Shown: positions 43,767-62,197 of the stretch, one piece after another
How the letters are laid out: every line of letters starts with the position of its first letter
Numbering within the stretch: position 1 is the stretch's first letter
Source: a virus
Strand: one strand, 5' to 3'
Virus record (IMG/VR): IMGVR_UViG_3300037852_000220
Location: 1-64,000 of that record
DNA length: 64,000 nt
Program-made: the position numbers and the translations under genes
The notes under the pieces: model-generated
What the model saw: the letters and a program-made list of their open reading frames with translations, nothing else
What the model was told of the DNA's origin: nothing
Database searches by the model: none

Positions 43767-43991
43767 TCAGACGACACGATTCAGACTCGGATTCAGCGTG
43801 GGGTCGAGCGACGCTTCAGCTTCGCCCGTCATCATGAGCACGTGCTCCAATTCTGATTTTTGCGACTGCTCGACATTTTCTTCGGCCGCCTGCTGATAAA
43901 AATCCTGTACGAGCGAATCCCACGTGCGAGCGCCGTAGGCCGAGGTATACCCCTCGACCTTCGCCATTGCTTCGCGATCAAGCTTTTCCAT
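43767..43991 (-). CDS. hypothetical protein (74 aa)
   Basis: ORF track. Confidence 0.35.
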   Translation of the reverse strand: MEKLDREAMAKVEGYTSAYGARTWDSLVQDFYQQAAEENVEQSQKSELEHVLMMTGEAEASLDPTLNPSLNRVV

Positions 43992-46140
43992 ATGGCTTCC
44001 TAAGGTGACCGGTTCCGAGCCAGGTTTTGAACTCGTTCATCGACACGCGATGTACGGACATGATGCGGTCGACGCCCTGCAGATCACTGTAGCTGGACAC
44101 GTAGGCCGCACACGCGCGTGCCTGCGATGAGAACCCGAGCATGCACTTGTGCTCATCAAAAAATCCGGTGCGCAGATCCTTCTGGTTGATGATGTACACG
44201 GTGTCCGCGCCGCGATCGGGCCCGAGGAAGCAATCCATTCCTTCGTCCGGACCTTCGGCCGAACCCGTACCGATCACGTAGCCGTAGTCGGCCGCTATGA
44301 TAGCTTGCCACGGGTTCGCAGGATCACGCGAGGTGCGCGTCGTGCCGCGCTGATTCTCGATGTGCAACTTCAACCCGTGGAACTCGCACGTCACTGGGCC
44401 GCACGCCGCGTCATCGAACGGCCGCGCACCTGGCATTACACCACTCGGCATGACGTCGGGTTTGGGTAGAACGTTCGGAGGGTAGCCGGGCTCGCTGTAC
44501 GGAATAGCGTGACGCTCTTCAGTGCCACCAGCAGAACCTGTCCATGCAGCGTCGCGGCTCTTCCCCTTTGCAGGAGCCGGTTTCTTACCGCCCGGGGGCG
44601 GACCACCTGGCACTGGGGGCTGATCCTCCATGCCCGGCATGACGATCCCCGCGGCAGGAACCGGAACATCGGCGGCCGCTTCGATATCTTCTTCCGTGAT
44701 GTTTGTCCACACGCCGGTTTCGTGCGACTGCTGTTTGAGCTCCTGCATCGCAGTCTTCGTGGACACGGTGCCTTTTTCTTCGGCAGCCAGAATGGTCTCG
44801 GTGATGGTCTTGGCGATCGTGGCCTTTTCGAGCTCGGTCGGTTGCCACAGGGGCTTGAACGCGATGCTCATCTCCTCGTTCCACTTGATCCCGAGGGATT
44901 GCGCCATCAGCTGATACACGACCGTCATCGGATACAGCAGATCAGCGATTTGGCGTGCCTTGATCATGTCGTAGTAGTTGCGCATGTCGGACTCACCCGT
45001 GGCGTTCATGCCGGCGGGTGATGTGCCGAACAGCTTTGTCTGCGGCATCTGCAGGGCGCCCGACAATTGCTGCCGGAACTCTTGCAGAATCTCGGCCAGC
45101 CCCGCGAACGCGGCGTGCTCATGACCTTCGTATTCGTCTTCCAGGTCCATCAAGGTGACGCCCTCGATGCCCTGCTGCGAGCGCATAACTTCGAGCAGTG
45201 CGCGCACACCTTCCATCGCGACTTCGTTCGAGCCGACGAGCTCTTTCAGGCCCTTCAGCTTGTATGTGCGGATGAACGATTTGTCGATCAGCTGCGCGGC
45301 GCCGCTCGATCCGATGTCGAACGCATTGATCCGGTCCTGGATCGTTTCGAGCACGGACAGGCCCCAGAGATTCTCCTGGATCGCCTGCCAGTACGGAAGC
45401 TCGTTTCCGACCATGCGGATCACGCGCGAGTGATGAATTTTCATGCGCGGCAGGGCCGGCGCGTCCGCGGTGACGCGGTAAAACATCGGCTTGCCGAATT
45501 GCGGGGACGCAAAGTCCGTTACCAGCAATTCCAGGCTCGGGTCGACCATCCACCGGTCGAGCGGGAAGATGCCCTTGAATTGATCCTTGCCGACGGTCTC
45601 GATTCGCAGCGGAGTCGAAGGATCCTGGTTGGCGATTATGATGAACCCGAGGCACCCGCCGTACAGGCGCGACCACTTCAGCACCGACCGGACGCTCGTC
45701 CACAGATTAAGCTTCGTGGCCTCGGCATCCATCTTACGGATGTCCTTTGGCTTCATAGGCCCATTAAGAATGACCCCTTGACGAGTCATGTCTTCCGGGA
45801 TCACGTCGATGGCGTTCTTGCAGACGAACTGCCCGCGGTACATCCACTCGACCAGCGTGCGGATCCGGGTCAGCGGGTTGAAACTTGAACTGGAGCTTGA
45901 AAGGATGTTCTGCGCGCCGAGCCCGAGCCGGTGCGTGTAGTTGACGAACGAGTCCTGGAATTTGCCGCCGGCCGTCGCTTTCGCCATCGGGGTAACGGCG
46001 TCCATGCCGATACTCTCACGAGCCTTGCTGTCGGCGACTCTCGCGGAGCGTGCTACCTGAGTGACACCCACTCGTTTTGGCGCGCCGGCACCGTTACGCT
46101 TCCCGCCCCATCCGTTCGCCATCTTGAAACCTCGATTCAA
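43978..46140 (-). CDS. portal protein (DUF1073-like) with ~170-aa C-terminal extension
   Basis: 720 aa upstream of MuF-like gene; core followed by Pro/Gly linker then Cys/His-containing extra domain. Confidence 0.65.
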   Translation of the reverse strand: MNRGFKMANGWGGKRNGAGAPKRVGVTQVARSARVADSKARESIGMDAVTPMAKATAGGKFQDSFVNYTHRLGLGAQNILSSSSSSFNPLTRIRTLVEWMYRGQFVCKNAIDVIPEDMTRQGVILNGPMKPKDIRKMDAEATKLNLWTSVRSVLKWSRLYGGCLGFIIIANQDPSTPLRIETVGKDQFKGIFPLDRWMVDPSLELLVTDFASPQFGKPMFYRVTADAPALPRMKIHHSRVIRMVGNELPYWQAIQENLWGLSVLETIQDRINAFDIGSSGAAQLIDKSFIRTYKLKGLKELVGSNEVAMEGVRALLEVMRSQQGIEGVTLMDLEDEYEGHEHAAFAGLAEILQEFRQQLSGALQMPQTKLFGTSPAGMNATGESDMRNYYDMIKARQIADLLYPMTVVYQLMAQSLGIKWNEEMSIAFKPLWQPTELEKATIAKTITETILAAEEKGTVSTKTAMQELKQQSHETGVWTNITEEDIEAAADVPVPAAGIVMPGMEDQPPVPGGPPPGGKKPAPAKGKSRDAAWTGSAGGTEERHAIPYSEPGYPPNVLPKPDVMPSGVMPGARPFDDAACGPVTCEFHGLKLHIENQRGTTRTSRDPANPWQAIIAADYGYVIGTGSAEGPDEGMDCFLGPDRGADTVYIINQKDLRTGFFDEHKCMLGFSSQARACAAYVSSYSDLQGVDRIMSVHRVSMNEFKTWLGTGHLRKPYGKA

Positions 46141-46165
46141 ATTGAATCAAGATGGTATCACCGAA

Positions 46166-46402
46166 TCAAGGCATGCAGTGCTGGTCTAGATCTTCGAGGA
46201 AGGGTTTCATCAGCCGGGCGAATTTTTCACCATCAAATTCGCCGGAGGAGGTGCATTGTGTGAATGCTCCGAGAAGAATCTGGGCGCCACAGCTGAAGCC
46301 TGTTTTGTACCCTGCGCACGCCGCCTGCCGAGTGGCCAGGCTGGCATTTTCACATGCCGTCATGGAGAATTCGGCCAACGACCCCGTGAGCGTGCGAATC
46401 AT
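46166..46402 (-). CDS. hypothetical Cys-containing protein (78 aa)
   Basis: ORF track. Confidence 0.35.
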   Translation of the reverse strand: MIRTLTGSLAEFSMTACENASLATRQAACAGYKTGFSCGAQILLGAFTQCTSSGEFDGEKFARLMKPFLEDLDQHCMP

Positions 46403-46665
46403 TTCCGTCCCCTATTTCGGACCTTCTTATCGAAGGCTTCAAGAGTTGGCGCCGGTTGCCGATGAATACTGTCGGTATCGAGCTTGGCAGCCGGCCGGGT
46501 CAGGGTAATGGTCAGACGATCGCCGACGCGCGCCATGTCCACAATTATTGTGCTGGCTTCGCCAAGGCCGCCCTGCATCCGGTACGTGCGATTGTCCTCG
46601 GCGTCAAGCTGGACCGCCGAATCGAGAGACAGGGCCTCGATGCGGACCAGGCTCATGACGGTCAC
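46399..46665 (-). CDS. hypothetical protein (88 aa)
   Basis: ORF track. Confidence 0.35.
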   Translation of the reverse strand: MTVMSLVRIEALSLDSAVQLDAEDNRTYRMQGGLGEASTIIVDMARVGDRLTITLTRPAAKLDTDSIHRQPAPTLEAFDKKVRNRGRK

Positions 46666-46859
46666 GCAAACTGGCTGGTATTCACGGTCTGCGGATTGAA
46701 CACCGCGGAAGCGCCGCCAAGGGCCAGCAACACGTTCGCGACCGCATCGGCCGCATTGTCCGTGTTCAACGTGACGACGACCTGGGTTATGGTCTGAGCG
46801 CCACTAAGCGCGTTCGTGACATTGACCGGGATGGTCATGGTGTGGGAAGCGACGGGCAT
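46662..46859 (-). CDS. hypothetical protein (65 aa)
   Basis: ORF track. Confidence 0.35.
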   Translation of the reverse strand: MPVASHTMTIPVNVTNALSGAQTITQVVVTLNTDNAADAVANVLLALGGASAVFNPQTVNTSQFA

Positions 46860-46954
46860 GTGATTCTCCTAAAATTGGTGGGCGGGGGCCGCGAGTCAAG
46901 CCCCCTCGGATACCTGAGCCCGGGTTTCCTCGTAGGCTATGCCTGCAGTCTATT

Positions 46955-47551
46955 CTACGCGATCCTGTGCGTCGGTTGGGGCAGACGCGAGCTTGCGCCC
47001 AAAACCGGTCGTTGATCGAACGCCTCCCCTGCATTGGGCGCCACGATGACCGTGGTTCCTGGATCGGCCAAAACTGGTGGTGCGATCTCGACCGTACCAC
47101 CGCCAGCCCGCACGACATCCCCTGTCCGCGGATCGACAGTATGCGGAACACCGGTCTCGCGCGTCAAGCGACCAGCTTCAACGTCGCCGGCAGGATTCAG
47201 CCAGGTGCCAATCTCGACCATTTCACCTTCACCATTCTGCGCGAAGCGGCCGGTACCCTTGAAATGTTTCCCCGTAGTTGCCGGGGTTTGCGTCACTTGC
47301 AAATCCTTCGATTGTAGGATCGGATCTCCGGCTAGCGCTGATGCCTTCTTAGTGGGGCGCGGCGCGCCGCCACCTGATTCTTTCTTCGAGCGTGGGGCCG
47401 TAACGAAATCAAGCGCGGCCTGCAGCTGTTCACGCCATACATGGTCATGAGGCGACCCGGGCTCATTTTCGTAGACAAATGACTGCAGCGGATCCATCTG
47501 CCCTGTGCGAGCCAGTGCGTCGTTGCATTCATCCCAGGTCGGCAGTATCAC
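46955..47551 (-). CDS. hypothetical protein (198 aa)
   Basis: ORF track. Confidence 0.4.
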   Translation of the reverse strand: MILPTWDECNDALARTGQMDPLQSFVYENEPGSPHDHVWREQLQAALDFVTAPRSKKESGGGAPRPTKKASALAGDPILQSKDLQVTQTPATTGKHFKGTGRFAQNGEGEMVEIGTWLNPAGDVEAGRLTRETGVPHTVDPRTGDVVRAGGGTVEIAPPVLADPGTTVIVAPNAGEAFDQRPVLGASSRLPQPTHRIA

Positions 47552-48351
47552 TTCGTTCCTCCACGTCGAGCGGCATTCGCGGCCACGATGGTCGGAAGTG
47601 CCAAGTCCAGCATGTTTCGACGCTGCGCAGCCTTACGATCCTCGACTGCCTTGTGATCGCCAAACAGCAGTTGTTTGATTCGCTTCTGGTTGTCGCGCGC
47701 GCCGGGAATGTTACTGTCGGGCCGGGCCATGCGTTCCCAGATCGAACGCTTCGCCGGGTTGTCGACGGGCTCTGGACCTGGATCTGGCAGGTATGGTGCT
47801 CGTAGATACGCGATCAGCTCGGGCCTGAAATTGTCGATCGCCATGCGGAGTTCGATCGGAATCTGCGACCGCTGCATGTTCACATAATCGGCGTCCGGAA
47901 ATGTCGCGGTATCAATCAGTGCACTGATCTCTGGCGGTGCGTCAACCCACGGAAGGGGGTTGTCCTTTGGATTTCCGTTCGCCACATCCTTCGGATCAGG
48001 GACCATGCGAGTCACCCACGGTGTGATGACTTTGATCATGCCCATAGCATTCGGATGATCAAGCGTGATCGTGATCCCCATCGCGGCCGCAGTACTAATG
48101 ATCGTCTCGGCGATCGAAGGCTTGGCGGGCTCAGGGGGCGGCAGATCGTCGATTGTGAGCTCTTGGCCGCCCCCGTCGCGTTCCTCGATGAATTCGATTA
48201 GATCGGCGCGACACTTGCGAATCTCTTGCAGCAAATCGGCCGGGACCTTGCGCTTTGGCGTGGCCGTCAGTTTACCGTCAGTCGGGTTGATGCGCAGTTT
48301 GACTCCGCGCTTTTCACAGGCTTCTACGATCTCAGCTGGCTTCACGTTCAA
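47548..48351 (-). CDS. hypothetical protein (267 aa)
   Basis: ORF track. Confidence 0.45.
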   Translation of the reverse strand: MNVKPAEIVEACEKRGVKLRINPTDGKLTATPKRKVPADLLQEIRKCRADLIEFIEERDGGGQELTIDDLPPPEPAKPSIAETIISTAAAMGITITLDHPNAMGMIKVITPWVTRMVPDPKDVANGNPKDNPLPWVDAPPEISALIDTATFPDADYVNMQRSQIPIELRMAIDNFRPELIAYLRAPYLPDPGPEPVDNPAKRSIWERMARPDSNIPGARDNQKRIKQLLFGDHKAVEDRKAAQRRNMLDLALPTIVAANAARRGGTK

Positions 48352-48671
48352 TCACCGTCCAAATCGCCATCGGTATCGATCACCGGCAGCGGAGGGTATT
48401 GGACACCGCGCACGGCGCCGATGATAGATTCACGAGCATTGCTGATCAAAGCCTGGAGTTCGGCCGGCAGCGGCGTCGGAGTGTTGTCGGGTTGGAACGG
48501 CATCGTGACCGTCATCGTGGTGAAGTTGTTCGACAAAATGACATCGCCTCCGAGCGCCCGAATCCAGTCGAGCGCATACTGGCCTTTTGTCACTCGCAAA
48601 CCTGGCGTACCTCCATTGAACATTCCGTCAGGGGCCCCATTGGGCTCGAACACGTTAGGCGGGTACGGCAT
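48348..48671 (-). CDS. hypothetical protein
   Basis: internal ATG 48671 with GGAG 6 nt upstream avoids overlap with lipoprotein gene. Confidence 0.4.
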   Translation of the reverse strand: MPYPPNVFEPNGAPDGMFNGGTPGLRVTKGQYALDWIRALGGDVILSNNFTTMTVTMPFQPDNTPTPLPAELQALISNARESIIGAVRGVQYPPLPVIDTDGDLDGD

Positions 48672-48672
48672 A

Positions 48673-49068
48673 TCAGGCTCCGTGCAAATCAGGCAGTTGA
48701 AACATGAACCGGAATTGCTCAGCATTGTCAGGATCACACTTACCAAGGACCGCTTCTCGCACCATTCGCGGAGTCACTTCGTCATCCATGTCCCATAACG
48801 AATGAACGGTTTCGCGCACGCGAGACACGTCTTCTTTGTCTCGGACGTATGTAAACCAACGACCGTCTTCGAACATCTTCCGCAGACCTTCGTCCGCTTC
48901 GTCGACCGACCAACCCTGTATTTTCAGAGTCATGAATCGTTCGGCGTCGGATGCATACGATATACATTCACCCGGCTGCAGGGTATGTGCGTGCGAGCCG
49001 CAGGACACTAAAACAAACATGCTACCGAGAATCGATGCTGTCCAGAAGGCTCGCGTCAATACGACCAT
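48673..49068 (-). CDS. lipoprotein (signal + lipobox LVSC)
   Basis: MVVLTRAFWTASILGSMFVLVSCGS. Confidence 0.45.
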   Translation of the reverse strand: MVVLTRAFWTASILGSMFVLVSCGSHAHTLQPGECISYASDAERFMTLKIQGWSVDEADEGLRKMFEDGRWFTYVRDKEDVSRVRETVHSLWDMDDEVTPRMVREAVLGKCDPDNAEQFRFMFQLPDLHGA

Positions 49069-49069
49069 G

Positions 49070-49453
49070 TCAATCCTTATTCGGCACACCGTGCGATTGG
49101 CGCAACGACTCCATCAACCGCTCTTTGCAGTTGCTCTCCACTATATCATGGACCTGTTTCGCCGACAGCGTAAGATTACCGTAAATCCAATTCAGGGTAT
49201 TGATTGCCTGCTGATCGTCGTCGTCGTCTTTGTAGATGCACGTCAGCCGATGAGCGGGATCGCGACAGATCTCCAGAGTCGCCGCCATCACACCGAGTTG
49301 CATCTTGAGGGACGCGTTCTTGACGTCGAACGCTTCCTGCTTCGCGTCCCACGCGAACGCGTGGCATTCGGTTTCGTTCATCGTGTGGGCAACGGCGGCC
49401 CCGGCAACAGCATAGATCGCGAGCATGATCGAAAACGACAGGCTTCTCATCAC
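49070..49453 (-). CDS. secreted protein (signal peptide)
   Basis: MMRSLSFSIMLAIYAVAGAAVAHT signal; acidic DDDDD stretch. Confidence 0.45.
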   Translation of the reverse strand: MMRSLSFSIMLAIYAVAGAAVAHTMNETECHAFAWDAKQEAFDVKNASLKMQLGVMAATLEICRDPAHRLTCIYKDDDDDQQAINTLNWIYGNLTLSAKQVHDIVESNCKERLMESLRQSHGVPNKD

Positions 49454-50127
49454 AGGGTCCTTTCAAATGCGGCCACAGCCGCGGGAACGTATGGGCGAAT
49501 CAGGTCGAGCATGGCTTCGGCGTAGACCCGTATTTCAAACTGCGCATGCTCGTGCAAACGAAGCCTAAGGAAACCGAACAAGTTGTGCAGATCGACGGTC
49601 GCGAAGTGCTTGCTGTACGTGTTCAGTGGCAGCACGCCGCGCGCGAGCTCGCGGGGGCAACCGAGCGACAGGAGTTTTCTGTAGCTCCGGAACGATTCCA
49701 GACACGCGCATCGGATCTCGTCCTGTATCTCAGCCGCATTCTCATTTACCTCGTCAGTCCGCATCTGCTTGTTGTGCGTCGATTGCGTCGTGATCTGGTC
49801 AAGCGCCGGCACGTAGAAGCACTCTTCGAGCTCGCTATAGCGACCCGACTGCTCGTTGTACTTCCAGGTGCGGTGCCGATGCCACTGACGGAAGTTGAAG
49901 ATCGGAGCCTTCGCCTCGAAACAGAAGATCACATGCTCGAATGGCGACGTGTGCTTGTTCTCCATCAGGTAAGCGATCAGCTTCTCGTCCGATCCGTCGT
50001 TGCGCGGCGCGGCGTTGTACGACACCCGGGCCGCGCGCACGATCATCTGGTCGTCACCCATGTGGTCGACCAGGCGCACTATGCCGTGATCTAGCACGGC
50101 GCGCCAATTGAGGATAGGCTCACTCAT
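49450..50127 (-). CDS. thyX: flavin-dependent thymidylate synthase
   Basis: ThyX signature RHR..S: FRQWHRHRTWKYNEQSGRYS, plus RVSYN..FEH motifs. Confidence 0.8.
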   Translation of the reverse strand: MSEPILNWRAVLDHGIVRLVDHMGDDQMIVRAARVSYNAAPRNDGSDEKLIAYLMENKHTSPFEHVIFCFEAKAPIFNFRQWHRHRTWKYNEQSGRYSELEECFYVPALDQITTQSTHNKQMRTDEVNENAAEIQDEIRCACLESFRSYRKLLSLGCPRELARGVLPLNTYSKHFATVDLHNLFGFLRLRLHEHAQFEIRVYAEAMLDLIRPYVPAAVAAFERTL

Positions 50128-50564
50128 TTTGTCAAATACGCCAGGGTCGACTCGATCGCGGCAACGTGCGCCGCGGGGACGAAGATCATCTTACCGTCGG
50201 CCGGCGCCGGGCTCTGGCCAGGTTCGAAACCTGCGGCGTCACGCACCGCGGTCCAAAGACCTGCCGCATCCACGGGGCGGTCAGCATGCCACACTGCCGC
50301 ATAGTAGAGTGCAGTCACGGCGTCGAGCAATGCCCCGCCGTCGTTATCGTTGGCATATTCGGTCAGCAGTACGGCGGCACGCGCCATGTACGACAGATTC
50401 TCCGAGTACAGGCCCTCGCGGTAGAAGCGATCGATCGACATGCGGATCTTCTCGACCAGCTGTTCGACGGGCATTGCCACGATCTCGGGGAATTCTTTTG
50501 GTGGTTTGGCGTCAATGGTCGCGACCAACTTGCTCTTCGGTGTCATGCTACCTCCATAGTGCAT
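50124..50564 (-). CDS. hypothetical protein (146 aa)
   Basis: ORF track. Confidence 0.4.
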   Translation of the reverse strand: MHYGGSMTPKSKLVATIDAKPPKEFPEIVAMPVEQLVEKIRMSIDRFYREGLYSENLSYMARAAVLLTEYANDNDGGALLDAVTALYYAAVWHADRPVDAAGLWTAVRDAAGFEPGQSPAPADGKMIFVPAAHVAAIESTLAYLTK

Positions 50565-50863
50565 TGCAGGGGATGTCTGTGATTGCTTGCCGTGCCACGA
50601 ACTTGGTAGACTCGAGTCTCGGCAATTTGATGAGAATATACACCGGCCACGGCACGCCCTTCAGTATGAACCTTGAGCATGATATCGACCGCTTCGAAAG
50701 CAGTTTTGCCGAAGATCTGGATCAACAACTCAACCACGAACTCGGCCGGTGTGATGTCATCATTGATCAGAATCACAGCCCACAGTGGGGGCGGGGCTGG
50801 GGGTTGGATTTGACTGATCATACCCGGAACGATTTCGCCGGGCACTGCGTAGGTGGCGCTCAT
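50543..50863 (-). CDS. clpS: ATP-dependent Clp protease adaptor ClpS homologue
   Basis: WAVILINDDITPAEFVVELL...AVDIMLKVHTEGRAVAGVY..VAETRV..HPLQCTME aligns by eye with bacterial ClpS core. Confidence 0.75.
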   Translation of the reverse strand: MSATYAVPGEIVPGMISQIQPPAPPPLWAVILINDDITPAEFVVELLIQIFGKTAFEAVDIMLKVHTEGRAVAGVYSHQIAETRVYQVRGTASNHRHPLQCTMEVA

Positions 50864-50864
50864 T

Positions 50865-51068
50865 TCATTCCCCACTGAGACGCGTATAGGCGCCCGCACG
50901 TTCGAGCTCTTCGATCTCTTCCTCGACTTCTTCGAGCGTCTCGCGATGACCGAGCCCGGTACGTAACGCCACGCTGACGCGAACCAGAATACCCCGCAGT
51001 CGGTTGCGATCCTCGGGAGTCATCGCGTCGTGTCCCGAGTGATCAACAGATCCGGGAAGTGACCCCAT
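50865..51068 (-). CDS. hypothetical acidic protein (67 aa; alt start 51023)
   Basis: ORF track. Confidence 0.35.
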   Translation of the reverse strand: MGSLPGSVDHSGHDAMTPEDRNRLRGILVRVSVALRTGLGHRETLEEVEEEIEELERAGAYTRLSGE

Positions 51069-51229
51069 GGATGCACACTCATACCGAACGCGTAGTTACG
51101 GCATTGCTCCATGTCAATGAAATCTTTCGAATGACTAACTTCCAGTCGTCCGTCGTACCAAACCTCCCGGCGACTGCTGGTGCAGTTGTCGAACGTGCCA
51201 GTTGGATGTTTCGGTTTCGTAGCCATCAC
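51020..51229 (-). CDS. hypothetical protein (69 aa, GTG start)
   Basis: ORF track. Confidence 0.35.
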   Translation of the reverse strand: MMATKPKHPTGTFDNCTSSRREVWYDGRLEVSHSKDFIDMEQCRNYAFGMSVHPWGHFPDLLITRDTTR

Positions 51230-51326
51230 TCAGTATCCTTCCAGTTGAATTCTCGTGGAGTAACTGGAACAAACATCCAAGAAAGAAGGATGCCGAACAT
51301 GACTATCAATGTTATAAAAACCTGGC
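51217..51326 (-). CDS. micro membrane protein (36 aa)
   Basis: GGAGG RBS, single TM, stop overlaps next start; below ORF cutoff. Confidence 0.2.
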
Positions 51327-51335
51327 CAGGACTCA

Positions 51336-51533
51336 TCAATCCTCCACGAATTGCCGGATCTCGGTATCGAATTGGGTGTCGCGCTCGCGGGCGCCCAGGA
51401 TGTGCTTGGCCTCTTCGAGAGACTTGAACTTGTCGCGCGTGCGCCGGCCGGCGCGGTCGGGCGGGTTGAGCATGTTGCGGATGTTCCGCTCGACCGCTTC
51501 TTCGTACCGCTGCTGTCGGGTCTTAGCCATCAC
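51336..51533 (-). CDS. hypothetical protein (65 aa)
   Basis: ORF track. Confidence 0.35.
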   Translation of the reverse strand: MMAKTRQQRYEEAVERNIRNMLNPPDRAGRRTRDKFKSLEEAKHILGARERDTQFDTEIRQFVED

Positions 51534-51862
51534 TTCCCCTTGGCGAGCCGACGGACACGGGCGCGTTCTTTCTTCGCCACCTTCAGCAGATCGCTCCAGA
51601 CGTCCTGCTCGATGCGTATGCGCAACCGCTCGATGAAATTCATCGCATTGACGGCCTGCTCCATGACCATCACCGGGCGGGCGGGTTTGTTGCCGATGTC
51701 GAACCGGGCGAGCAGAACGTCGCGCAGGGCGTCGATCTCGCGGACATTCAGGCGGATGTTTCTGATTGCGGTCGCGGTGAGTTTGTTGCGGTCCGGCATG
51801 TATTGATACAGATTAGAATCGACCGACTTCACAGGCGTTGCCTCCATCGAGTGAACAGTCAT
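51530..51862 (-). CDS. hypothetical protein (110 aa)
   Basis: internal ATG chosen over TTG 51889. Confidence 0.4.
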   Translation of the reverse strand: MTVHSMEATPVKSVDSNLYQYMPDRNKLTATAIRNIRLNVREIDALRDVLLARFDIGNKPARPVMVMEQAVNAMNFIERLRIRIEQDVWSDLLKVAKKERARVRRLAKGK

Positions 51863-51888
51863 TATGGCAGTAAATGACGGTCGTGTCA

Positions 51889-52017
51889 ATAAATATCGTC
51901 GTCATTCTGATCAGCAATCTGCCGGATCAGATCCAGGATCCAACAGCCGGCCGCCACGAGTGCTGCAGCGCACATTCCTGCAGTAACTGCTTGACAAACC
52001 GTCAGATCGTCGATCAT
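51889..52017 (-). CDS. micro membrane protein (42 aa)
   Basis: GAGGA RBS 7 nt upstream; hydrophobic core; below ORF cutoff. Confidence 0.25.
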
Positions 52018-52166
52018 CAGAATTTCCTCAAAACGAACATCAGATGATCGTACGCTTCGCGCGGAGTGGATCCTCTACGCGCAACCCATCCTAGCCGGCA
52101 ATACCATACACCGCACTCGCGCCAAAGACGAGGCTTATGAGCCATTCGAATCACTCCGCGAAAAAA

Positions 52167-52763
52167 TTAAAACTCGGAACGAAGCGACAGGCTGAAAACG
52201 CCCCATCCCAATCCTTGGTACTGCGTCTGTACCGAACCAACGTGGACATTCTCCGTGCGCAAGAGACGATAGTTGAAAATCAATTCCGCCACGGGAGTGC
52301 GATATCCGATCCCCGCCAGCGGTGACACAAGGGTTTGAGTGTTGTCCACTCGTAGACCCTGATGCGGCTTGACCGTCCCATCGGTCCAATCGGGGATATT
52401 CATCGCGAATCCCGAACGCGCGACACCCACCCCGATCTGCGCGAACGCCGGGCCCCAGTGAGGCTCGTACGCCGCCCAAATCCCATACGGATGCTCTACC
52501 CCGTACCAGTGGCTGTACGGAACACGCCCGTCACGACAGGCCGGCTCGTCTGCGCCACATGCGATCGCAGACGATGTCATCCTCCCCAGGCGCTCTGCCG
52601 ACACGCTCCAGTTTGAGCCGACCAGCGTGACACCATATGCCACACCTTCGTTGCGAAACGAATGAGGCTTCTCGGCTTGGTACCACGTACCATTCGGAGG
52701 ATTCGTTTCGTAGGAGCCGCCGAGCAGCAGCTGCAGACATGCGGTAAACAGGCAATTCGTCAT
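52167..52763 (-). CDS. outer-membrane beta-barrel protein (PagL/Lom-like moron)
   Basis: N-terminal signal, alternating amphipathic strands, C-terminal ...LSLRSEF ending in Phe. Confidence 0.5.
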   Translation of the reverse strand: MTNCLFTACLQLLLGGSYETNPPNGTWYQAEKPHSFRNEGVAYGVTLVGSNWSVSAERLGRMTSSAIACGADEPACRDGRVPYSHWYGVEHPYGIWAAYEPHWGPAFAQIGVGVARSGFAMNIPDWTDGTVKPHQGLRVDNTQTLVSPLAGIGYRTPVAELIFNYRLLRTENVHVGSVQTQYQGLGWGVFSLSLRSEF

Positions 52764-52948
52764 TGCGTGGACTCCCTAATTGCTTGACGGGCCAGGTCGA
52801 GAATCTCGCCCGGAGTTATAGTTGGGCCGCCGAACGGACAGCGCGCGTGGCGTGCCTTGATCCATTCGAGATGCTTCCGGTCGAGTGCAGCGAGAAGCAC
52901 AACGGCTTGCGCAGGACTGAGTGTCGGAACCCCAACGGTGTTGAACAT
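52760..52948 (-). CDS. hypothetical protein (62 aa)
   Basis: ORF track. Confidence 0.35.
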   Translation of the reverse strand: MFNTVGVPTLSPAQAVVLLAALDRKHLEWIKARHARCPFGGPTITPGEILDLARQAIRESTQ

Positions 52949-52963
52949 GTCGTTACCCCCGAT

Positions 52964-53113
52964 TCATACGTGAACCCACAGAATGACTGCGCAGAGTACT
53001 GCAACAAGCGCGTAGTCGAACGCCGCACCGTGATGCGCGTATTTGCCGTACGAGAATTCCATGAGGGCGCGCAGAGTGTAGATTGCGCATATGAAGTAAA
53101 TCAGCCAGTGCAT
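52964..53113 (-). CDS. small two-TM membrane protein (49 aa)
   Basis: GGAG 6 nt before ATG; MHWLIYFICAIYTL...LVAVLCAVILWV; preferred over listed 52953-53159 frame. Confidence 0.3.
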   Translation of the reverse strand: MHWLIYFICAIYTLRALMEFSYGKYAHHGAAFDYALVAVLCAVILWVHV

Positions 53114-53358
53114 CTTCATCTCCGGTTGCGGATCCAATGCAAGTGATGATGCTGTTCAAGTGATTCGGCGCGGCGCGACCGCCTGCATTGGCCTATGAAC
53201 GGTGTGCCCGGCAAAGCCAGGTATCCCACCAAAAGTTCGGCACGTCGGACGGGTCACAGGCAATTAGCGCCTCGCCGCTTCGACTCGCAACCGGCGGCGC
53301 CGCCGGCCCTATCACTTGAACAGCATCATCGAGAGCGAGACTGTAGCACATGATCCGA

Positions 53359-53385
53359 TCTGATGCAAGAAAAAAATAGGCCCCG
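53359..53385 (-). terminator. rho-independent terminator (8-bp stem ATAGGCCC/GGGCCTAT, loop CGAA, then 7 U on - strand)
   Basis: seen in sequence downstream of secreted-protein gene. Confidence 0.6.
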
Positions 53386-53402
53386 AAGGGCCTATTATTA
53401 GG

Positions 53403-54266
53403 CTATCGCCTAACTGCGTCATCTCCACCACCGCCCCCGCCGCCACTCGGCGGAGAGACGTAATGCTGCTGCAGACCATTCCCCCAAATCGGAATGTAGG
53501 AGAAGAACGTAGCATTGTCGAGGATGCCGCAATTGAATCCACCGCATCCCGAACCCGTGAACGTCACCAGATACGTTCCCGGCTGCAACACGTTCCCCGT
53601 GCTTTGGTTCAGGACCCATTCGTCGCACCGCACCCAGGTGTTGCAGGCGTAGGTGGCGTGATTGAATTGCGCCACCGTCCCATCGCCCAAAAGAGCCGGC
53701 TGACCCGTCGAGACCCATTGCTGCAACATGCAAGGGGATCCGCCGCAGAAGCCCTGCCCCATCACCGGAACCGTGTTTCCGTTGGCATCAGTCGTAGTCT
53801 CCGGCACCGCCTGAACGATCGAGACTAGAGGCGCGCCATTCACGTCTGTTGCCGGCATGTATGTCAGATACGTCGGCGGAGGACATCCGCGCCCTGAACA
53901 CACGCCTCGCCCTTCCTGACCGTACAACGTCCACGGCATGTTGGTGATGACCCATCCGCCGCCAGCTGCCGTAGCTGCCGCGTCTGACGTGTAATAGCCG
54001 GAGAAACTGGCCTGGATAGCACCGGAGAAATCTTCAGTCACCAGAGGGTTGCTAGTGCCGCCAATGCGGAAAGTGGTCTGCGTGTATGTGCCGTTGACCA
54101 GTGCCCCTTGAGAGATAGTCTCACGTCCGCTGTTACCCGCGGTGCTGATCTGCGGCGGAAACGGATTGGGGGTAGGACCCGCGCATGGCGCGGCATGCGT
54201 ACACGTCTGCGCGAGCGCAAACGTCGAAAACAGCAATGCGAAACATCCTGCAATGAATTGCTTCAT
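53403..54266 (-). CDS. secreted Cys-rich protein (moron)
   Basis: MKQFIAGCFALLFSTFALAQT signal; many Cys and Gly; flanked by terminators. Confidence 0.5.
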   Translation of the reverse strand: MKQFIAGCFALLFSTFALAQTCTHAAPCAGPTPNPFPPQISTAGNSGRETISQGALVNGTYTQTTFRIGGTSNPLVTEDFSGAIQASFSGYYTSDAAATAAGGGWVITNMPWTLYGQEGRGVCSGRGCPPPTYLTYMPATDVNGAPLVSIVQAVPETTTDANGNTVPVMGQGFCGGSPCMLQQWVSTGQPALLGDGTVAQFNHATYACNTWVRCDEWVLNQSTGNVLQPGTYLVTFTGSGCGGFNCGILDNATFFSYIPIWGNGLQQHYVSPPSGGGGGGGDDAVRR

Positions 54267-54371
54267 TTTCCCGCTTCCTTTATTCAACATCCCGAGAACC
54301 GCTCGGTACGGTGGTTCGATAGCCTGATCTTACCCGAAATCAAAGTCAACTCATCCGATCGGTTGAGGGTG

Positions 54372-54397
54372 AAAAAAATCCCCGCATATGCGGGGAT
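54372..54397 (-). terminator. rho-independent terminator (perfect 20-bp palindrome ATCCCCGCATATGCGGGGAT then 7 U on - strand)
   Basis: seen in sequence upstream of moron gene. Confidence 0.6.
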
Positions 54398-54536
54398 TGT
54401 CAGTTGGTTGTTACCACGACTGTAACTGAGATCGGTATCGTGGCGTAAATGCGACGGTGTCTCCGTCTTTCTCGCCATCTCCGCCACTTGGGTGAGTACC
54501 GCCAGTTAAGCTCGCGGACTAGCCCAAGGACCGAGC

Positions 54537-54848
54537 TCACGACAACGTGACTGTCACGGACAGCGGAATTGTCGCCGTCACGTTCGGCACCGTAAACGGC
54601 AGCGAGACCACCGCGGGGGCGGCCGGGCGGGCCGTTTGCGCGTCAATCCGTTCCGCCGAGATCGTGTAGGTGCCAGGGGCAACGTTGTTGAACGTGACCG
54701 ACACTTGCGTGCCCGTGCCCGTGGTGTCTTGCCCACTTTGCGTGGACACGATCGCGCCGGTGCTGTCCAGCAGATTGAAGTTGACCGGCCCTACCAGACC
54801 CACGTTAACCGGGCTGCCGAGGCTGGCGACTGCGTTTGCATTCATCAT
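54537..54848 (-). CDS. Ig-like/beta-sandwich domain protein
   Basis: ATG 54848 with AAGGA 6 nt upstream; PGTYTISAE..VTATIPLSVTVTLS. Confidence 0.4.
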   Translation of the reverse strand: MMNANAVASLGSPVNVGLVGPVNFNLLDSTGAIVSTQSGQDTTGTGTQVSVTFNNVAPGTYTISAERIDAQTARPAAPAVVSLPFTVPNVTATIPLSVTVTLS

Positions 54849-54920
54849 GGTGATTCCTTTCGAAGAAGTGAATCGAGAGTATGCCACGCTGCACTGCAGC
54901 GTGGGGACCCTCTGATTCGA

Positions 54921-55085
54921 TTACAGCTTTTTCACTGCAGATTGAGCAGCTGCCACATCGGCCTTGATCTTTTGAGCGATCATCGGATGTTTCGCCTGCA
55001 CGAACACGCCAACCACGACAGCGGCTGCGTGAGTGCCGATCAACAAAGCGTTCGTGGCCAGAAACGCATACACGGAACTGAACAT
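54921..55085 (-). CDS. small membrane protein (54 aa)
   Basis: GGGGAG 6 nt upstream of ATG 55085; single TM. Confidence 0.4.
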   Translation of the reverse strand: MFSSVYAFLATNALLIGTHAAAVVVGVFVQAKHPMIAQKIKADVAAAQSAVKKL

Positions 55086-55267
55086 GGGATTCTCCCCAAA
55101 GAGTGAGTCTGCGATGGTACTCCGAATTCGCATGTTGCGCGGATGCCACTTTCGCGTGTCAACTGTCTGGAAGTGTCGACCCTGTATCCCGCCAGCAAGT
55201 GGTATATGGTTACCAGTAGGTCTTTGGCTGATTGGCGGAACAGGACACCATAGTTCTAGACAGTCGA

Positions 55268-56914
55268 CTACACCTCATCCTCGTCAGCTAGATACCCCAC
55301 GCGAGTGGGTGTCTCTCCGTCGGCGCGCTCGCGCACCAGGCCGTCGGTGAACTTGAATTGCGCCAGGCGTTGCACATTTGCAACAGCCTTCAGCTTCTCC
55401 AGCGTCTCTTCATCCGGAATGGCCAGCACCGCATAGGCGTCAGCGCACGCGTCGACCCCGTCGTCGTGGCGGCAGTCTGGGAACGGCCGGAAGTGATCCT
55501 TGACAGCGTCGGCGCAGTGTGCCATGACCGCGACCCACCCCACGTTCAGCTGCGAGGCGAGTGGGTCTGCGCGTGTCTGTTTATCCGATCGCGCAGGGCG
55601 CTCCACAACCGTGTAACCGTCAAGCAGCTGTGTGATGGTCATGAATTGGTCGGTGCCTGCCTGGCCCGGCTCCACCGGCACCGCTATCTTCACGTCACGT
55701 CCGTCGCGATGTGCTGTTGCCTTCATCCGCGCCTTTACCTCATCCGGGCGCGCGCGAAACAGCATGAATTCCTCGATGACGTAGATGTGCACCTGGGGGT
55801 AGTACGCCAGCAGCACGCTCGCTGTGAAGTCGGGCTCGGTCCTACCCGCCTTGAGCTCACGCGCGGCCAGGTCCCATCCGCGGCAGGCTAGGCGAGGACC
55901 CGGCGGCCGCACCGTGATCACCGGCATAGCGTCGACCTTGAATGTCGTACCCGACACGTTGTACGGCTGCTGCATATACTGCGTGGCGAACTCCCACGGT
56001 TTCTGCAGGCGATACGCGTGCAGCCACTCTGTAGTGGCGCCGCCTTCCCATCGCGAGTTGTCGTTCTCGTCGAGCGCGGTCAGAGTCAGGTTATGGAACT
56101 TGACGCCCAGGATGCTGGTCATGTCCTGACGCCCATGTTCATCTGGTAGATGAAGCTTCGAGAAAATGTCGTCCGTGGCGGCCCGCTGCCCAATGACCAG
56201 GAACGGCGTACGCGTCGTCTCGTTGCGTCGCGAGTTGACGACACCACCAACGATGTTGAGCACCTCCTCCTTGCTGAGCTCGCTCTTGGCTTCCTGCAGT
56301 TTGTGCAAGTCGTCCATGACCAGCGCGCCCGAGAAGCGATCGAGCACGCCTTTGATGCCGACGCCGAAGCCCGTGATCTGGCCGTTGATTCCGACGAACT
56401 TCATGTTGCCGCCCTGCGTCGTCTTCGTCACTTCCTTGCTGTCGTTCTTCCGGTCGATGACGGTCTTGGGGAACAGCCGCTTGTACAGAGCCGATCCCAT
56501 GATCTTCTGACGGATCAGGTCCGACGAGTCGTTGGCCAGCTTCTCCGTAGAGCAGATGTACATGATGTTTGAGTCCGGGTACTGGCCCATCCCGAACGCG
56601 ATCCACATGCACACGATGTATGTCTTGCCGAACCGCGGCGGGATGTTGATATCGGCGCCCAGGTACTTCCCCTCGAAGCACTGCTGTAAGAATTGCATGA
56701 GCGTCGTGTGGAACTCCTGCTCGTCAAACGGCCGCCCGTCGGAGAGCTCCATGTGCATCAGGTGCACGAAACTGCGGAAGTCCTGCCGGGCCATTGCCTC
56801 GCGCACGGCCTGGTGCTGCTCGGGCGTGAGTTCCTCCTCTGGCTCGGGCCCGTCGGGCGGCAGCACGCCGTATGGCGTCACCTCCCAAAGGATGGGGTCA
56901 TCTTGCAGTCGCAT
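55268..56914 (-). CDS. terminase large subunit
   Basis: Walker A PPRFGKTY; nuclease-domain Asp-rich C-terminus; start chosen at 56914. Confidence 0.75.
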   Translation of the reverse strand: MRLQDDPILWEVTPYGVLPPDGPEPEEELTPEQHQAVREAMARQDFRSFVHLMHMELSDGRPFDEQEFHTTLMQFLQQCFEGKYLGADINIPPRFGKTYIVCMWIAFGMGQYPDSNIMYICSTEKLANDSSDLIRQKIMGSALYKRLFPKTVIDRKNDSKEVTKTTQGGNMKFVGINGQITGFGVGIKGVLDRFSGALVMDDLHKLQEAKSELSKEEVLNIVGGVVNSRRNETTRTPFLVIGQRAATDDIFSKLHLPDEHGRQDMTSILGVKFHNLTLTALDENDNSRWEGGATTEWLHAYRLQKPWEFATQYMQQPYNVSGTTFKVDAMPVITVRPPGPRLACRGWDLAARELKAGRTEPDFTASVLLAYYPQVHIYVIEEFMLFRARPDEVKARMKATAHRDGRDVKIAVPVEPGQAGTDQFMTITQLLDGYTVVERPARSDKQTRADPLASQLNVGWVAVMAHCADAVKDHFRPFPDCRHDDGVDACADAYAVLAIPDEETLEKLKAVANVQRLAQFKFTDGLVRERADGETPTRVGYLADEDEV

Positions 56915-57186
56915 CAGAAGACCCAGACCAGCACCGTGAGTGCGAATCCGATGCAGTATCCGCCGAAGTCGACGCACCCTGATTGAATTGACGCACCTTC
57001 TTCATGCAAGTCGAACCAGAACTCCTTCCACGCTGTGAACGCCACCGCGGCCGCGAGCCCGTACCAGCGCAGGCCGGGCAGCCAATGCGACCACAGCGCC
57101 AGCACCGTGAAGATCATGAACGCGTGCAGCTCCAACGACGTCGTGACGGGCGACAACATGTATTTCTTGAACCAATTCACGAACAT
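56914..57186 (-). CDS. three-TM membrane protein between terS and terL
   Basis: hydrophobic segments; stop/start coupling with terL. Confidence 0.45.
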   Translation of the reverse strand: MFVNWFKKYMLSPVTTSLELHAFMIFTVLALWSHWLPGLRWYGLAAAVAFTAWKEFWFDLHEEGASIQSGCVDFGGYCIGFALTVLVWVF

Positions 57187-57355: not shown

Positions 57356-58063
57356 TTAACTCCTAAGGATTGGATCGTCCGCCAGTCTAATTGGGGACGT
57401 AGTAGACTCGAGTCTCGACGAGACCGAAACGGGCCTGCCCGTAACGACCGTGGCGTCAGTGGCCCGCGCATTCATCGTCCGCAGCCATAGGGATGCTGCG
57501 TGGTCGATCTGAGCCTGGGTCATCCCGGCCGCCGGATCAACCGGCGTGTCGACCTTCACGCGTGTGGGCGCGTCGATGCCCAGGAGCATGGCCCGGCGAT
57601 GCCACAGCTTCAGCAGCAGGCCTATGGCTTCGTTCTGAGGCCCCTCGTCGACCATCTCCTCCAGGACCGGCTGTAGCTGCCCCGTGTTCACGTTGCGCTC
57701 CAACAGCACCTGGCCATCAGCGCCCTTCACCGGGATCATGACGACCTGGCCGGCGTTCACCTTGATGTACTTGCGCTGCGTCTTCTTGAACAGCTGTGCC
57801 TCGACTTTGTCGTATTTCTCCAACTCCATCTCGCGAAACTCCTCGGCGGCCTGCGAGGGGTTGTCCTGCATGTAGCGCCTGATCATCTTGCTGCAGCCCG
57901 AGACGCTAAGCCCCAGCTGATCTGCGCATTCCTTAAGGGTAAGCCCCTTCAGGCGCAATTCCAGCACTTGCTTCGTTCGCTCGTTGCGCTCGATGGCCGC
58001 TACGGTAGTCTTCCCGTGAGAAGGAGCGTGTGGTGTGTGCGATGTTGACATTTCAGGCCTCAA
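57356..58063 (-). CDS. terminase small subunit (HTH-containing)
   Basis: LKGLTLKECADQLGLSVSGCSKMIRR helix-turn-helix; position between HNH and terL. Confidence 0.5.
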   Translation of the reverse strand: MRPEMSTSHTPHAPSHGKTTVAAIERNERTKQVLELRLKGLTLKECADQLGLSVSGCSKMIRRYMQDNPSQAAEEFREMELEKYDKVEAQLFKKTQRKYIKVNAGQVVMIPVKGADGQVLLERNVNTGQLQPVLEEMVDEGPQNEAIGLLLKLWHRRAMLLGIDAPTRVKVDTPVDPAAGMTQAQIDHAASLWLRTMNARATDATVVTGRPVSVSSRLESTTSPIRLADDPILRS

Positions 58064-58622
58064 ATTGAATTTTTGCAGCGTCGATCAGTACCAATTCTAA
58101 CTCGCGGAGTGTCGCATTCGACTTCAGCGTATTTGCTCGGAACGAGATCCATCGCACGTTCCCCCTCACATACCCGAGCTCGGGTCGAATCTTGTCGATG
58201 CTAGGAAGTCCCGGCGAACACTGCCCCGTGCCGCGTACGAGAGGGATGCCTAGAACCGGGCATATGCTCGGAATAGAGCCGAGACATCCGCCTGGTTCAC
58301 AATCGTCATTCGTCAGATCGAATGCTATGCCTGATTTTGCGGCACGGTTTCGCACATTCGTGATGAAGACGTGCTCAGGTTTCTCGGTGCGCCGCGACTT
58401 CATAAGCTTGGCGGCCCTTGCGTTTGCGCACATGACACATGTGCCGCTGCACGAGTACCTCTCAGATCCGTGCGTGACGTCGGTGCGGCACGGATCCCCA
58501 TTGAATCGGGGCTCTCGTTGTTGCATTGCGGTCGCCCGAGCAGTGTCGTGCATCGAGCTCATCGGTTTATAACGCATTCGACACCCCGTTATTGACATAA
58601 CATTGTAGCACGTTAGTGTCAA
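58053..58622 (-). CDS. HNH endonuclease (terminase-associated)
   Basis: IDKIRPELGYVRGNVRWISFRAN..KSNAT HNH_3-like motif; first gene of late operon. Confidence 0.6.
   Translation of the reverse strand: MTLTCYNVMSITGCRMRYKPMSSMHDTARATAMQQREPRFNGDPCRTDVTHGSERYSCSGTCVMCANARAAKLMKSRRTEKPEHVFITNVRNRAAKSGIAFDLTNDDCEPGGCLGSIPSICPVLGIPLVRGTGQCSPGLPSIDKIRPELGYVRGNVRWISFRANTLKSNATLRELELVLIDAAKIQFEA
58600..58611 (-). promoter_or_regulatory. candidate extended -10 promoter TGCTACAAT for - strand late operon
   Basis: reverse complement of 58603-58611. Confidence 0.3.
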
Positions 58623-61978: not shown

Positions 61979-62197
61979 ATGCACGGCACAGTCATTAGCA
62001 AGGTTCGCGTAACACTGTCCGACGGGTCACACGTGTTTGACGTCGTGATGTCCCGACCCGGTGCTGAGGTGGTTCGGTTCAATTGTCCTGATGAACCGGA
62101 CGCAGATTCGTTCGTTACGGGTTTGCATACGCTTCTCAACTATCACACGCTAGACTGCGCGCATCGTGGTCTTGACCGTGAGGAGAATTGTTCATGA
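61979..62197 (+). CDS. hypothetical protein (72 aa)
   Basis: fills gap between paralogs; weak RBS. Confidence 0.3.
   Translation: MHGTVISKVRVTLSDGSHVFDVVMSRPGAEVVRFNCPDEPDADSFVTGLHTLLNYHTLDCAHRGLDREENCS

Follow-up and report, generated by a model that had tools for sequence, protein, structure and literature searches.

Evidence for a layered junction region between the terminase and portal genes of an uncultured soil myovirus

Introduction

The gene for the terminase large subunit (terL) and the portal gene are commonly adjacent in phages, but this arrangement is not universal. In a 64,000-nt stretch of the virus record IMGVR_UViG_3300037852_000220 (positions 1–64,000 of the record; hereafter the window, whose positions are used throughout), the two genes are separated by 9,145 bp (46123–55267). 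This raises the question of what the interval consists of, and of how much of it is foreign to the lineage. An original prediction, made from this single genome, described it as one 9-kb accessory island inserted at an unusual location within the packaging/head operon, and as a hot spot for host-interaction or anti-defence cargo. Here, we compared the interval with that of related metagenomic contigs and found that it is probably a layered junction region made of three layers, and not one insertion: genes conserved across the lineage lie next to the portal gene, an operon common to a sub-clade follows, and variable cargo lies directly behind terL.

Results

The flanking genes and the interval

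The window derives from an uncultured soil myovirus that is PB1/ZHS-like and has a Gram-negative host. Both flanking genes had been correctly called. On the minus strand, terL occupies 55268–56914 and encodes a protein of 548 aa, which matches PHROG 38 'terminase large subunit' (1.4e-57) and Pfam Terminase_6C. Its open reading frame (ORF) covers 55268–56977 (569 aa), and gene calls on near-identical twin contigs together with the lengths of homologues indicate 56914 as the likely start. We considered whether terL might be mis-called and discarded this possibility, as the PHROG 38 and Terminase_6C matches stand. The portal gene, also on the minus strand (43978–46122, 714 aa; ORF 43978–46140, likely start at 46122), matches Phage_portal_3 (4e-94) and has a C-terminal InPase match (5e-29). 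This InPase domain (PF18823) corresponds to residues ~585–708, and the portal-InPase fusion is kept in all relatives.

Transcription runs from terL towards the portal gene, and the gap is tiled by minus-strand ORFs whose stops and starts overlap. The pipeline called 22 genes in the gap on four contigs that are 95–97% identical, and we added 2 possible ORFs; the count of about 25 small, co-oriented genes given by the original prediction was therefore sound.

Comparison with relatives separates three layers

The comparison set, examined by tblastn and clustering, comprised ~15 related contigs (designated by L numbers) that represent ~8 independent lineages, all of them metagenomic fragments. L001/L011 and L089–L092 are near-identical twins of the window, the longest twin lying on a 76,472-bp contig. 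In L007, L009 and L010, terL is 72–75% identical to that of the window. L012 and L013 have portals that are 82% and 73% identical, respectively, and in L002, L005, L006 and L020 identity falls to 43–51% for terL and 57–64% for the portal. A near-identity DNA search (megablast) of the interval against 50,697 phage records gave no match; among cultured phages, the Bordetella IFTN phages come closest in terL (33% identity) and Edwardsiella phage ZHS comes closest in portal (46% identity).

The size of the gap varies considerably among these contigs, from 1.0 kb in L015 through 2.1–3.0 kb in L006, L005 and L002 and 6.1 kb in L020 to 9.1 kb in the window and 10.3 kb in L023. In L023, the portal is 81% and the Mu-F gene 76% identical to the window, but terL is only 45% identical; this discrepancy points to a mosaic (recombination) breakpoint within or next to the terL-portal interval, and the packaging and head modules of L023 and the window appear to have different histories. 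Among the twin contigs, identity is blocky from terL all the way to portal and falls locally to as little as 68–89%.

Layer 1 (46166–48671, ~2.5 kb) is portal-proximal and contains six genes, A to F, which occur in the same order between terL and portal in the relatives. All gap-spanning relatives, down to a terL identity of 43–46%, have homologues of A, B and E, and most relatives have those of C, D and F. Gene A comes directly after terL in L005, while one or two small ORFs come first in L002 and L006; overall, the more distant relatives have only 0–2 small genes (0 to ~0.8 kb) between terL and gene A, and they lack the terL-proximal ~6.6 kb of the window gap. Judged by this synteny, layer 1, which makes up about a quarter of the gap, qualifies as lineage core and not as cargo.

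Layer 2 (48673–51889) contains a sigma70-like promoter (P2), genes for ClpS and ThyX, and a secreted/lipoprotein pair, and it is common to a sub-clade only. It is shared with L007 and partly with L023, in which ThyX is 69–74% and ClpS 58–60% identical; the sharing also covers a 140-aa neighbour of ClpS, several proteins of 52–100 aa and the secreted/lipoprotein pair. L009 and L010 stop short of ClpS and share P2 and the first genes behind it. The block is not present in L002, L005, L006 and L020.

Layer 3 (51890–55267) is the first ~3.3 kb after terL. Its gene sets differ in the window, in L007/L009, in L010 and in L023, although the layer itself is 97–100% identical among the twin contigs. 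The pattern of a hypervariability hotspot, with conserved flanks around non-homologous cargo, was thus seen at 51890–55267 and was not seen at 46166–48671. On this comparison, layer 3 is the truly variable region, and the differing sets of the lineages consist mostly of signal-peptide proteins.

These observations bear directly on the idea of a single accessory island of 9 kb, inserted between two adjacent core genes and filled with host-interaction or anti-defence cargo. Temperate relatives with the same portal type, Burkholderia phage Magia and Salmonella phage SEN34, do have terL abutting portal, and most genes of the interval are orphans, as an island would predict. Against this, genes A to F keep their position and order in the relatives, with A, B and E recurring as far as the gap-spanning contigs reach, and general searches, none of them aimed at anti-defence, gave no match to known anti-defence families. 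Conserved core genes in related phages, the observation that the original prediction had itself named as speaking against an island, are what we found at 46166–48671 and not in the rest of the interval. The single island is already contradicted for that segment and is, as an account of the whole 9 kb, very unlikely. The part of it that stands is the terL-proximal ~6.6 kb, absent from distant relatives, within which the first ~3.3 kb varies between lineages.

Layer 1: a conserved block next to the portal gene

All six genes of the conserved block lie on the minus strand. Gene A (48348–48671, 107 aa) has homologues with 46–73% identity in L002, L005, L006, L020, L007 and L023, where they sit directly or almost directly behind terL. 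Gene B (47548–48351, 267 aa) is likewise core, and its product has an N-terminal TubC_N-like beta-hairpin docking domain. A relation between the B family and ZHS_4 was tried and rejected, since hhalign showed none. Gene E (46399–46656, 85 aa), the third core gene, forms a single family with members in L012, L013, L002, L005, L006, L015 and L023.

The other three genes are semi-core. Gene C (46955–47551, 198 aa) has homologues in L002, L020, L007, L012, L013 and L023; gene D (46662–46859, 65 aa) is found with 61–81% identity in L002, L012, L013, L007 and L023; and gene F (46166–46402, 78 aa), whose product is Cys-rich, belongs to a family present in L012, L013, L002 and L020.

Layer 2: an operon with ClpS and ThyX

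Layer 2 opens with P2 (51861–51889, minus strand), which reads TTGACA-17-CATAAT with TG, agrees with the consensus at 11 of 12 positions and is unique in the window. Conservation in L007, L009, L010 and L023 covers P2, the 5' untranslated region TCGATGGAGG and the start context. The genes behind it, all on the minus strand, begin with a conserved hypothetical of 100 aa (51530–51832; homologues in L007, L009 and L010) and a basic one of 64 aa (51336–51530; 53–73% identity in L007, L009, L010 and L023). They are followed by a transmembrane (TM) micro-protein of 36 aa (51226–51336; GC 0.41), a conserved hypothetical of 68 aa (51020–51226; homologues in L007, L010 and L023) and an acidic one of 52 aa (50865–51023; homologues in L007 and L023).

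The next gene (50543–50863, minus strand, 106 aa) encodes the ClpS adaptor homologue, with matches to Pfam (1.1e-29), to PHROG 27368 and to ClpS structures in the PDB (1.9e-23); against PF02617 it scores 102.5 bits for a cut-off of 23. Alignment with ClpS of C. crescentus (3g1b, 3dnj) and with relatives showed that the N-degron pocket is kept, namely N-D-D, the Thr and the His of the VH motif. The gatekeeper Met is replaced by Ala in the window and L007 (TPAEF/TPADF), whereas L023 has Met. The best PDB match of the phage protein is the engineered M53A gatekeeper mutant of C. crescentus ClpS, as Ala is the natural residue at this position in the phage. In laboratory mutants, the change of the gatekeeper from Met to Ala broadens N-degron specificity, and the Ala of the window ClpS may, by analogy, confer broader specificity as well. 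Of 50,697 phage records, no more than 28 have a ClpS match, and most of these come from jumbo phages.

The start of the following gene (50124–50546, minus strand, 140 aa) overlaps the stop of clpS; its hypothetical product, for which we found no Pfam, PHROG or PDB match, is also encoded beside ClpS in L007 (59%) and L023 (33%). Then comes the flavin-dependent thymidylate synthase ThyX (49450–50127, minus strand, 225 aa), recognised by Pfam Thy1 (PF02511; 3.9e-52, 177 bits) and by PDB 6j61 (7.5e-57), in which the RHR-X7-S signature is legible as RHRTWKYNEQS. The original prediction had thus named both thyX and the ClpS homologue correctly.

The layer closes with two genes for exported proteins on the same strand. 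The first (49070–49450, 126 aa) encodes a protein whose signal peptide, by inspection, reads MRSLSFSIMLAIYAVAGAAVA|HT. The second (48673–49068, 131 aa) encodes a lipoprotein candidate with the lipobox LVSC, where a hydrophobic N-terminus and MVVLTRAFWTASILGSMFVLVS-C were likewise recognised by inspection only; its homologue in L007 is 58% identical. In L007, the homologue of the 126-aa protein is also weakly similar to the lipoprotein of the window (26% identity, E = 3e-6).

We also considered whether the interval is an ancestral non-structural (early/middle) module, as in phage PB1, with the short-gap relatives as deletion derivatives. In PB1, a 6.5-kb block indeed separates terL from a portal-InPase gene that is followed by a similar head module, there are sigma70-like promoters inside the window interval, and ThyX and ClpS are typical pre-late functions. 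However, the PB1 block lies on the opposite strand and has no homologues in common with the window interval. Moreover, the content of layer 3 varies even among close relatives, and the ClpS-ThyX block is confined to lineages with a portal at least ~80% identical (window, L023) or a terL at least 71% identical (L007), so that parsimony favours gain. We therefore regard an ancestral module as an improbable explanation.

Layer 3: envelope cargo and a terminator-flanked gene

Returning to the layered region, its variable part is dominated by envelope-targeted proteins, in the window as in the relatives. The first gene after terL (54921–55085, minus strand) encodes a single-TM micro-protein of 54 aa with a hydrophobic 19-mer, and its ATG is preceded by the ribosome-binding site (RBS) GGGGAGAA. 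It is called as a gene in L089–L092, and DNA and protein similarity occurs in L010 at another position. Behind it, the gene at 54537–54848 (minus strand, 103 aa) encodes a possible beta-sandwich protein. The original prediction called it Ig-like, which is plausible but not established: the Pfam matches are sub-threshold (GBD_IRG7_N at 8e-5, PPC, SpaA), and the PDB matches are non-significant, though all to beta-sandwiches. An L023 homologue in the same relative place is 40% identical.

The largest gene of the layer (53403–54290, minus strand, 295 aa, probable start at Met9, 54266) encodes a Cys-rich secreted protein with the signal peptide MKQFIAGCFALLFSTFALA|Q. Just 5 homologous clusters were found among 1.84 billion representatives, and in all of them the signal peptide is present and the cysteines are conserved. 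This is the gene that had been described as a terminator-flanked moron. In favour of that description, intrinsic terminators (T1 and T2, see below) flank it, T2 lying downstream, and it is absent between the same neighbours in relatives: L007, L009, L010, L023, L002, L005, L006 and L020 have no homologue, which is found only in the 95–99% identical twins. Its GC content (0.59) is close to that of the window (~0.575), and the deviant composition of morons is thus lacking. A second secreted Cys-rich protein is encoded at 20609–21016 (minus strand), beside a tail-fibre-like gene. Paralogy between the two was not established, as only the signal peptide and a PFPP motif align (BLASTP E = 0.002).

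Further towards P2, all on the minus strand, lie a two-TM micro-protein gene (52964–53119, 51 aa; weak homologues in L007 and L023), a possible gene of 62 aa (52760–52948; RBS GGGGG, ATGA overlap with the next gene) that is uncalled on the twins and has no homologues beyond them, and the gene for a small outer-membrane beta-barrel candidate (52167–52763, 198 aa), OmpW-like. The latter is predicted to fold as a closed antiparallel barrel and ends in LSLRSEF. Its terminal Phe is invariant in 3 homologues, and with Ser at position -3 the beta-signal consensus is only partly matched. The original prediction of an outer-membrane barrel ending in Phe accordingly holds for the predicted fold and for the terminal residue; on the other side, the protein has no Pfam or PHROG match to curated families (OmpW, Ail_Lom, OMP_b-brl), and its N-terminus is atypical for export, with ~16 hydrophobic residues, no basic n-region, and residues 9–19 placed in a strand by AlphaFold. 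The layer ends with a TM micro-protein of 43 aa (51886–52017, minus strand; homologues in L007 and L009).

Overall, the membrane-directed genes listed by the original prediction were recovered: four micro-TM proteins (54921–55085, 52964–53119, 51886–52017 and 51226–51336), the lipoprotein, and two signal-peptide proteins (49070–49450 and 53403–54290), the last three by inspection. The profile searches that it had called for were run, and 20 proteins of the interval have no Pfam or PHROG match. The proposed host-interaction or anti-defence hot spot is borne out in so far as envelope-targeted cargo dominates, while no gene was shown to have an anti-defence function.

Exported cargo is also found in the relatives, where the variable cargo gave no Pfam or PHROG match. 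Three signal-peptide proteins are encoded one after the other in L007, and L023 has four, together with a membrane-anchored protein and the homologue of the beta-sandwich protein. In L020, extra cargo is also found at another site, flanked by the core block on one side and portal on the other, and includes one glycosyltransferase-like and one methyltransferase-like gene (by sequence inspection only). A cargo family with the motif NVWD..PNVSLIHDHPWDF and no Pfam match occurs in L009 (4703–5284), L010 (3678–4259) and L023 (5671–6156); its position within the variable region differs among these three lineages, and it is not in the window.

Terminators, promoters and a structured RNA

A strict search for intrinsic terminators (stem perfectly paired over 8 bp or more, T-rich tail) found exactly 2 in the 64 kb, for 0.1 expected by chance, both on the coding strand and flanking 53403–54290. 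T1 (54377–54398, minus strand; 9-bp stem, 4-nt loop, T7 tail) comes after the beta-sandwich gene, and T2 (53375–53396, minus strand) starts 7 nt past the stop codon of the 295-aa gene. Directly after T2 lies a second sigma70-like promoter, weaker than P2, designated P_RNA (53340–53368, minus strand), which reads TTGCAT-17-TACAGT. Its architecture recurs 7–10 nt before the RNA described below, as TTGCAA-18-TAGTAT in L007/L009 and TTGCGC-17-TACATT in L010; the spacer sequences differ.

The segment of ~200 nt that separates P_RNA from the 51-aa ORF shows DNA-level conservation in L007, L009 and L010. We examined whether this segment could be a small ORF (53193–53351), which is ruled out by frame-breaking indels of 2 nt and 1 nt and by compensatory substitutions in stems. 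It corresponds to a predicted structured RNA of ~193 nt (53140–53332, minus strand), in which a 19-bp closing stem surrounds several hairpins. The fold has a minimum free energy of -106.7 kcal/mol (z = -5.3), and none of 200 shuffles was as stable. A covariance model built from window/L011 and L007/L009 picked up L010 at full length (51 bits, E = 2e-14). In the alignment fitted to the model, 98.5% of cells are paired, compared with 34–49% in slid controls, and 23 pairs have double-sided changes; none of 500 shuffles reached any of these pairing measures. An independent MAFFT/RNAalifold run gave the same stem, in which 9 of the 19 pairs covary among the three lineages, and G-U pairs assign the structure to the sense strand. 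The predicted structure is thus well supported, in a family that is thin, with three independent lineages.

The RNA was found in all lineages with a terL at least 71% identical (L007, L009, L010 and the twins) and not in L023 or more distant relatives. Window-wide, neither a tRNA scan nor an Rfam scan at gathering thresholds gave a match. In E-value mode, Rfam returned noise for 52900–53500, the best match (E = 0.08, 21.8 bits, for a gathering threshold of 50) lying over a terminator and not over the RNA. Pattern scans for further copies yielded, among viral contigs, only the twin contig or non-homologous loci. The 62 matches on genome contigs were attributed to chance, as the covariance model gives no full-length match there.

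The setting of the RNA is the same in three lineages in that a sigma70-type promoter precedes it, and in the window it comes directly after the only two intrinsic terminators. It might be a new class of phage leader, either a ligand- or protein-sensing switch or a polymerase-modifying (put/EAR-like) element, which would restart and gate transcription of the envelope cargo, of the ClpS-ThyX operon and possibly of downstream head genes; we put this forward tentatively, as a possibility with a modest chance of being right.

From these signals, we infer that the terS-terL unit (terS, the putative small terminase gene, is described below) ends at T1, that the 295-aa gene is insulated, and that transcription of the envelope cargo and of the ClpS-ThyX operon starts at host-type promoters instead of reading through from terL. 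The placement of these genes within the packaging/head operon on the late strand, as originally predicted, is therefore doubtful with respect to transcription, since the strong T1 closes terS-terL and two conserved sigma70-like promoters follow downstream.

The same signals bear on a further explanation, in which most of the interval would encode virion or assembly components of an extended head module, with the Ig-like protein as capsid decoration and A to F and the small proteins as internal, ejection or chaperone proteins. The genes are co-oriented and tightly packed beside portal, beta-sandwich decoration proteins are common in phages, and A to F are conserved. Nevertheless, ThyX, ClpS, Sec signal peptides, a lipobox and an outer-membrane barrel fold are not virion features, terminators and promoters split the interval into separate units, and layer 3 is not conserved. 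Such a head module is the least probable of the explanations that we weighed.

Neighbouring genes

Upstream of terL, a gene encodes a 231-aa protein with a sigma-70 region-4 helix-turn-helix, which is probably the small terminase (terS). Just upstream of it lies an Endonuclease VII/HNH-like gene (58053–58622, minus strand). The twin contigs (95–97% identical) lose colinearity at 58066 and have opposite-strand genes there instead; the HNH-like gene therefore looks like a strain-specific homing-endonuclease insertion. Further on, a paralogous pair on the plus strand (61448–61972 and 62188–63120) has near-identical N-termini and long runs of YdcK-type beta-solenoid repeats (NARVFG...).

Downstream of portal follow Mu-F-like, DUF2213/Pa193_gp24 and capsid genes and then sheath, tape measure and baseplate genes. 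The replication module is on the plus strand at 1–19 kb, where the early/replication genes include a LysM-containing membrane protein (2322–3137), an SPFH/Band-7 protein (3144–3674) and a small TetR-like regulator (8472–8774).

Elsewhere in the window, we found neither an integrase nor a repressor domain. In addition, a portal profile scan of 185,579 reference genomes found no relatives, and hence no sign of a prophage and no pointer to a host. Given that neither a relative in the reference genomes nor an integrase or repressor domain was found, the phage is probably virulent.

Discussion

The layered organisation suggests a division of roles along the interval. As B has protein-docking-type domains, layer 1 could have an accessory role in assembly or packaging. 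Layer 2 would be a host-takeover operon specific to the sub-clade and driven by P2, in which ThyX would supply dTMP for phage DNA and ClpS, with its retained N-degron pocket, may redirect the substrate choice of host ClpAP. The Sec-exported proteins of layer 3 may remodel or mask the host cell envelope during infection, which might serve, for instance, to exclude superinfecting phages or to shield progeny from receptor-bearing debris. As to the timing of expression, T1 would end the terS-terL unit and T2 would insulate a single-gene moron, after which expression would restart at P_RNA, with a transcript that begins with the conserved ~193-nt structured leader RNA, and again at P2.

Several points weigh against this account. 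Genes A to F have no detectable homology to any characterised protein, and their designation as core comes from synteny. The set of ~8 independent lineages is small, and several relatives cover only part of the gap. For the RNA, the independent lineages number only three. The promoters were called as matches to a consensus, and a general scan of the window showed no excess of promoter-like or terminator-like sites over shuffles. The barrel model is of moderate confidence only, with an atypical N-terminal export signal. Lastly, the stretch from T1 to the ATG of the 295-aa gene contains no properly spaced sigma70-like site, which leaves the moron without a convincing promoter of its own.

The reading of the interval as a layered junction region nevertheless has several implications. 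It would make the 3' side of terL a site where a little-known soil myovirus lineage gains genes without upsetting virion assembly. Moreover, true cargo can now be told apart from lineage-core genes, which the single-genome reading had lumped together, so that the value of the comparison lies in a clean annotation and in correcting the claim of an unusual location. The arrays of exported proteins, ClpS and ThyX would form a coherent cargo with testable predictions on the host envelope and on proteolysis, and the promoter-RNA unit may represent a new regulatory RNA. Three items stand out, namely the envelope cargo, the ClpS of a mid-sized phage in which the gatekeeper is naturally changed, and the structured RNA close to a promoter, which had not been described before.

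Comparison with known systems

The region belongs to a known kind, the variable regions of phages that contain morons and auxiliary genes, and none of its features is a new kind of system. Its location also has precedents and is not unusual. In PB1 (Pbunavirus), a myovirus that has, like the window, portal-InPase, Mu-F-like, DUF2213/Pa193_gp24, a cement protein and a PF09950 capsid, 13 small hypothetical genes (6.5 kb) stand between terL and portal. In Edwardsiella phage ZHS, the gap is 1.6 kb and holds 4 genes, one of them RNA-ligase-like. PB1 differs in the orientation of its block and in a terL not detectably related by BLAST; when the proteins of the interval were searched against PB1 1–22 kb, only portal matched. 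Between the PB1 portal gene region and the window portal, the InPase part is 39% identical, the portal domain only ~22%. Pbunavirus relies on host-type sigma70 promoters, as we propose for the window, and the virulent Pbunavirus 14-1 has 26 sigma70-like promoters and single-gene moron-like units (PMC10914365). Moron-like units in virulent phages are discussed in the same work (PMC10914365).

The 295-aa gene, bounded by terminators and absent from relatives, resembles the morons of lambdoid phages (Hendrix/Juhala). Such morons, of which lambda lom and bor are examples, are inserted singly into late operons, each together with a promoter and a terminator of its own. Lom is an outer-membrane barrel inside the late operon and is paralleled by the OmpW-like barrel candidate of the window, as Bor is by the lipoprotein. 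The classical rationale of lambdoid morons is expression in the lysogen, which probably does not apply here, as there is no sign that the window phage is temperate. Envelope proteins for receptor masking or superinfection exclusion are known from T5 (Llp), phi80/N15 (Cor) and T4 (Imm/Sp); these are small envelope-targeted phage proteins like the window cargo, a likeness that would be functional only.

Phage-encoded ClpS (PHROG 27368) is known from jumbo phages such as PA5oct and Atu_ph07 (PMC7824862), and the window protein belongs to the same Pfam family and keeps the N-degron pocket; the window phage, at ~76 kb, is not a jumbo phage, unlike most ClpS-bearing phages. A review has proposed that phage ClpS delivers targets to host ClpAP (PMC7824862).

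Finally, the old/tin and Z/fun hypervariability hotspots of P2, one of which abuts the portal gene (bioRxiv 10.1101/2024.10.15.618418), have conserved flanks and changing cargo, as in the window. Unlike in these hotspots, the cargo of the window consists of envelope-targeted orphans, an auxiliary metabolic gene and a protease adaptor, with no recognisable defence systems, and only the terL-proximal third of the gap behaves as a hotspot.

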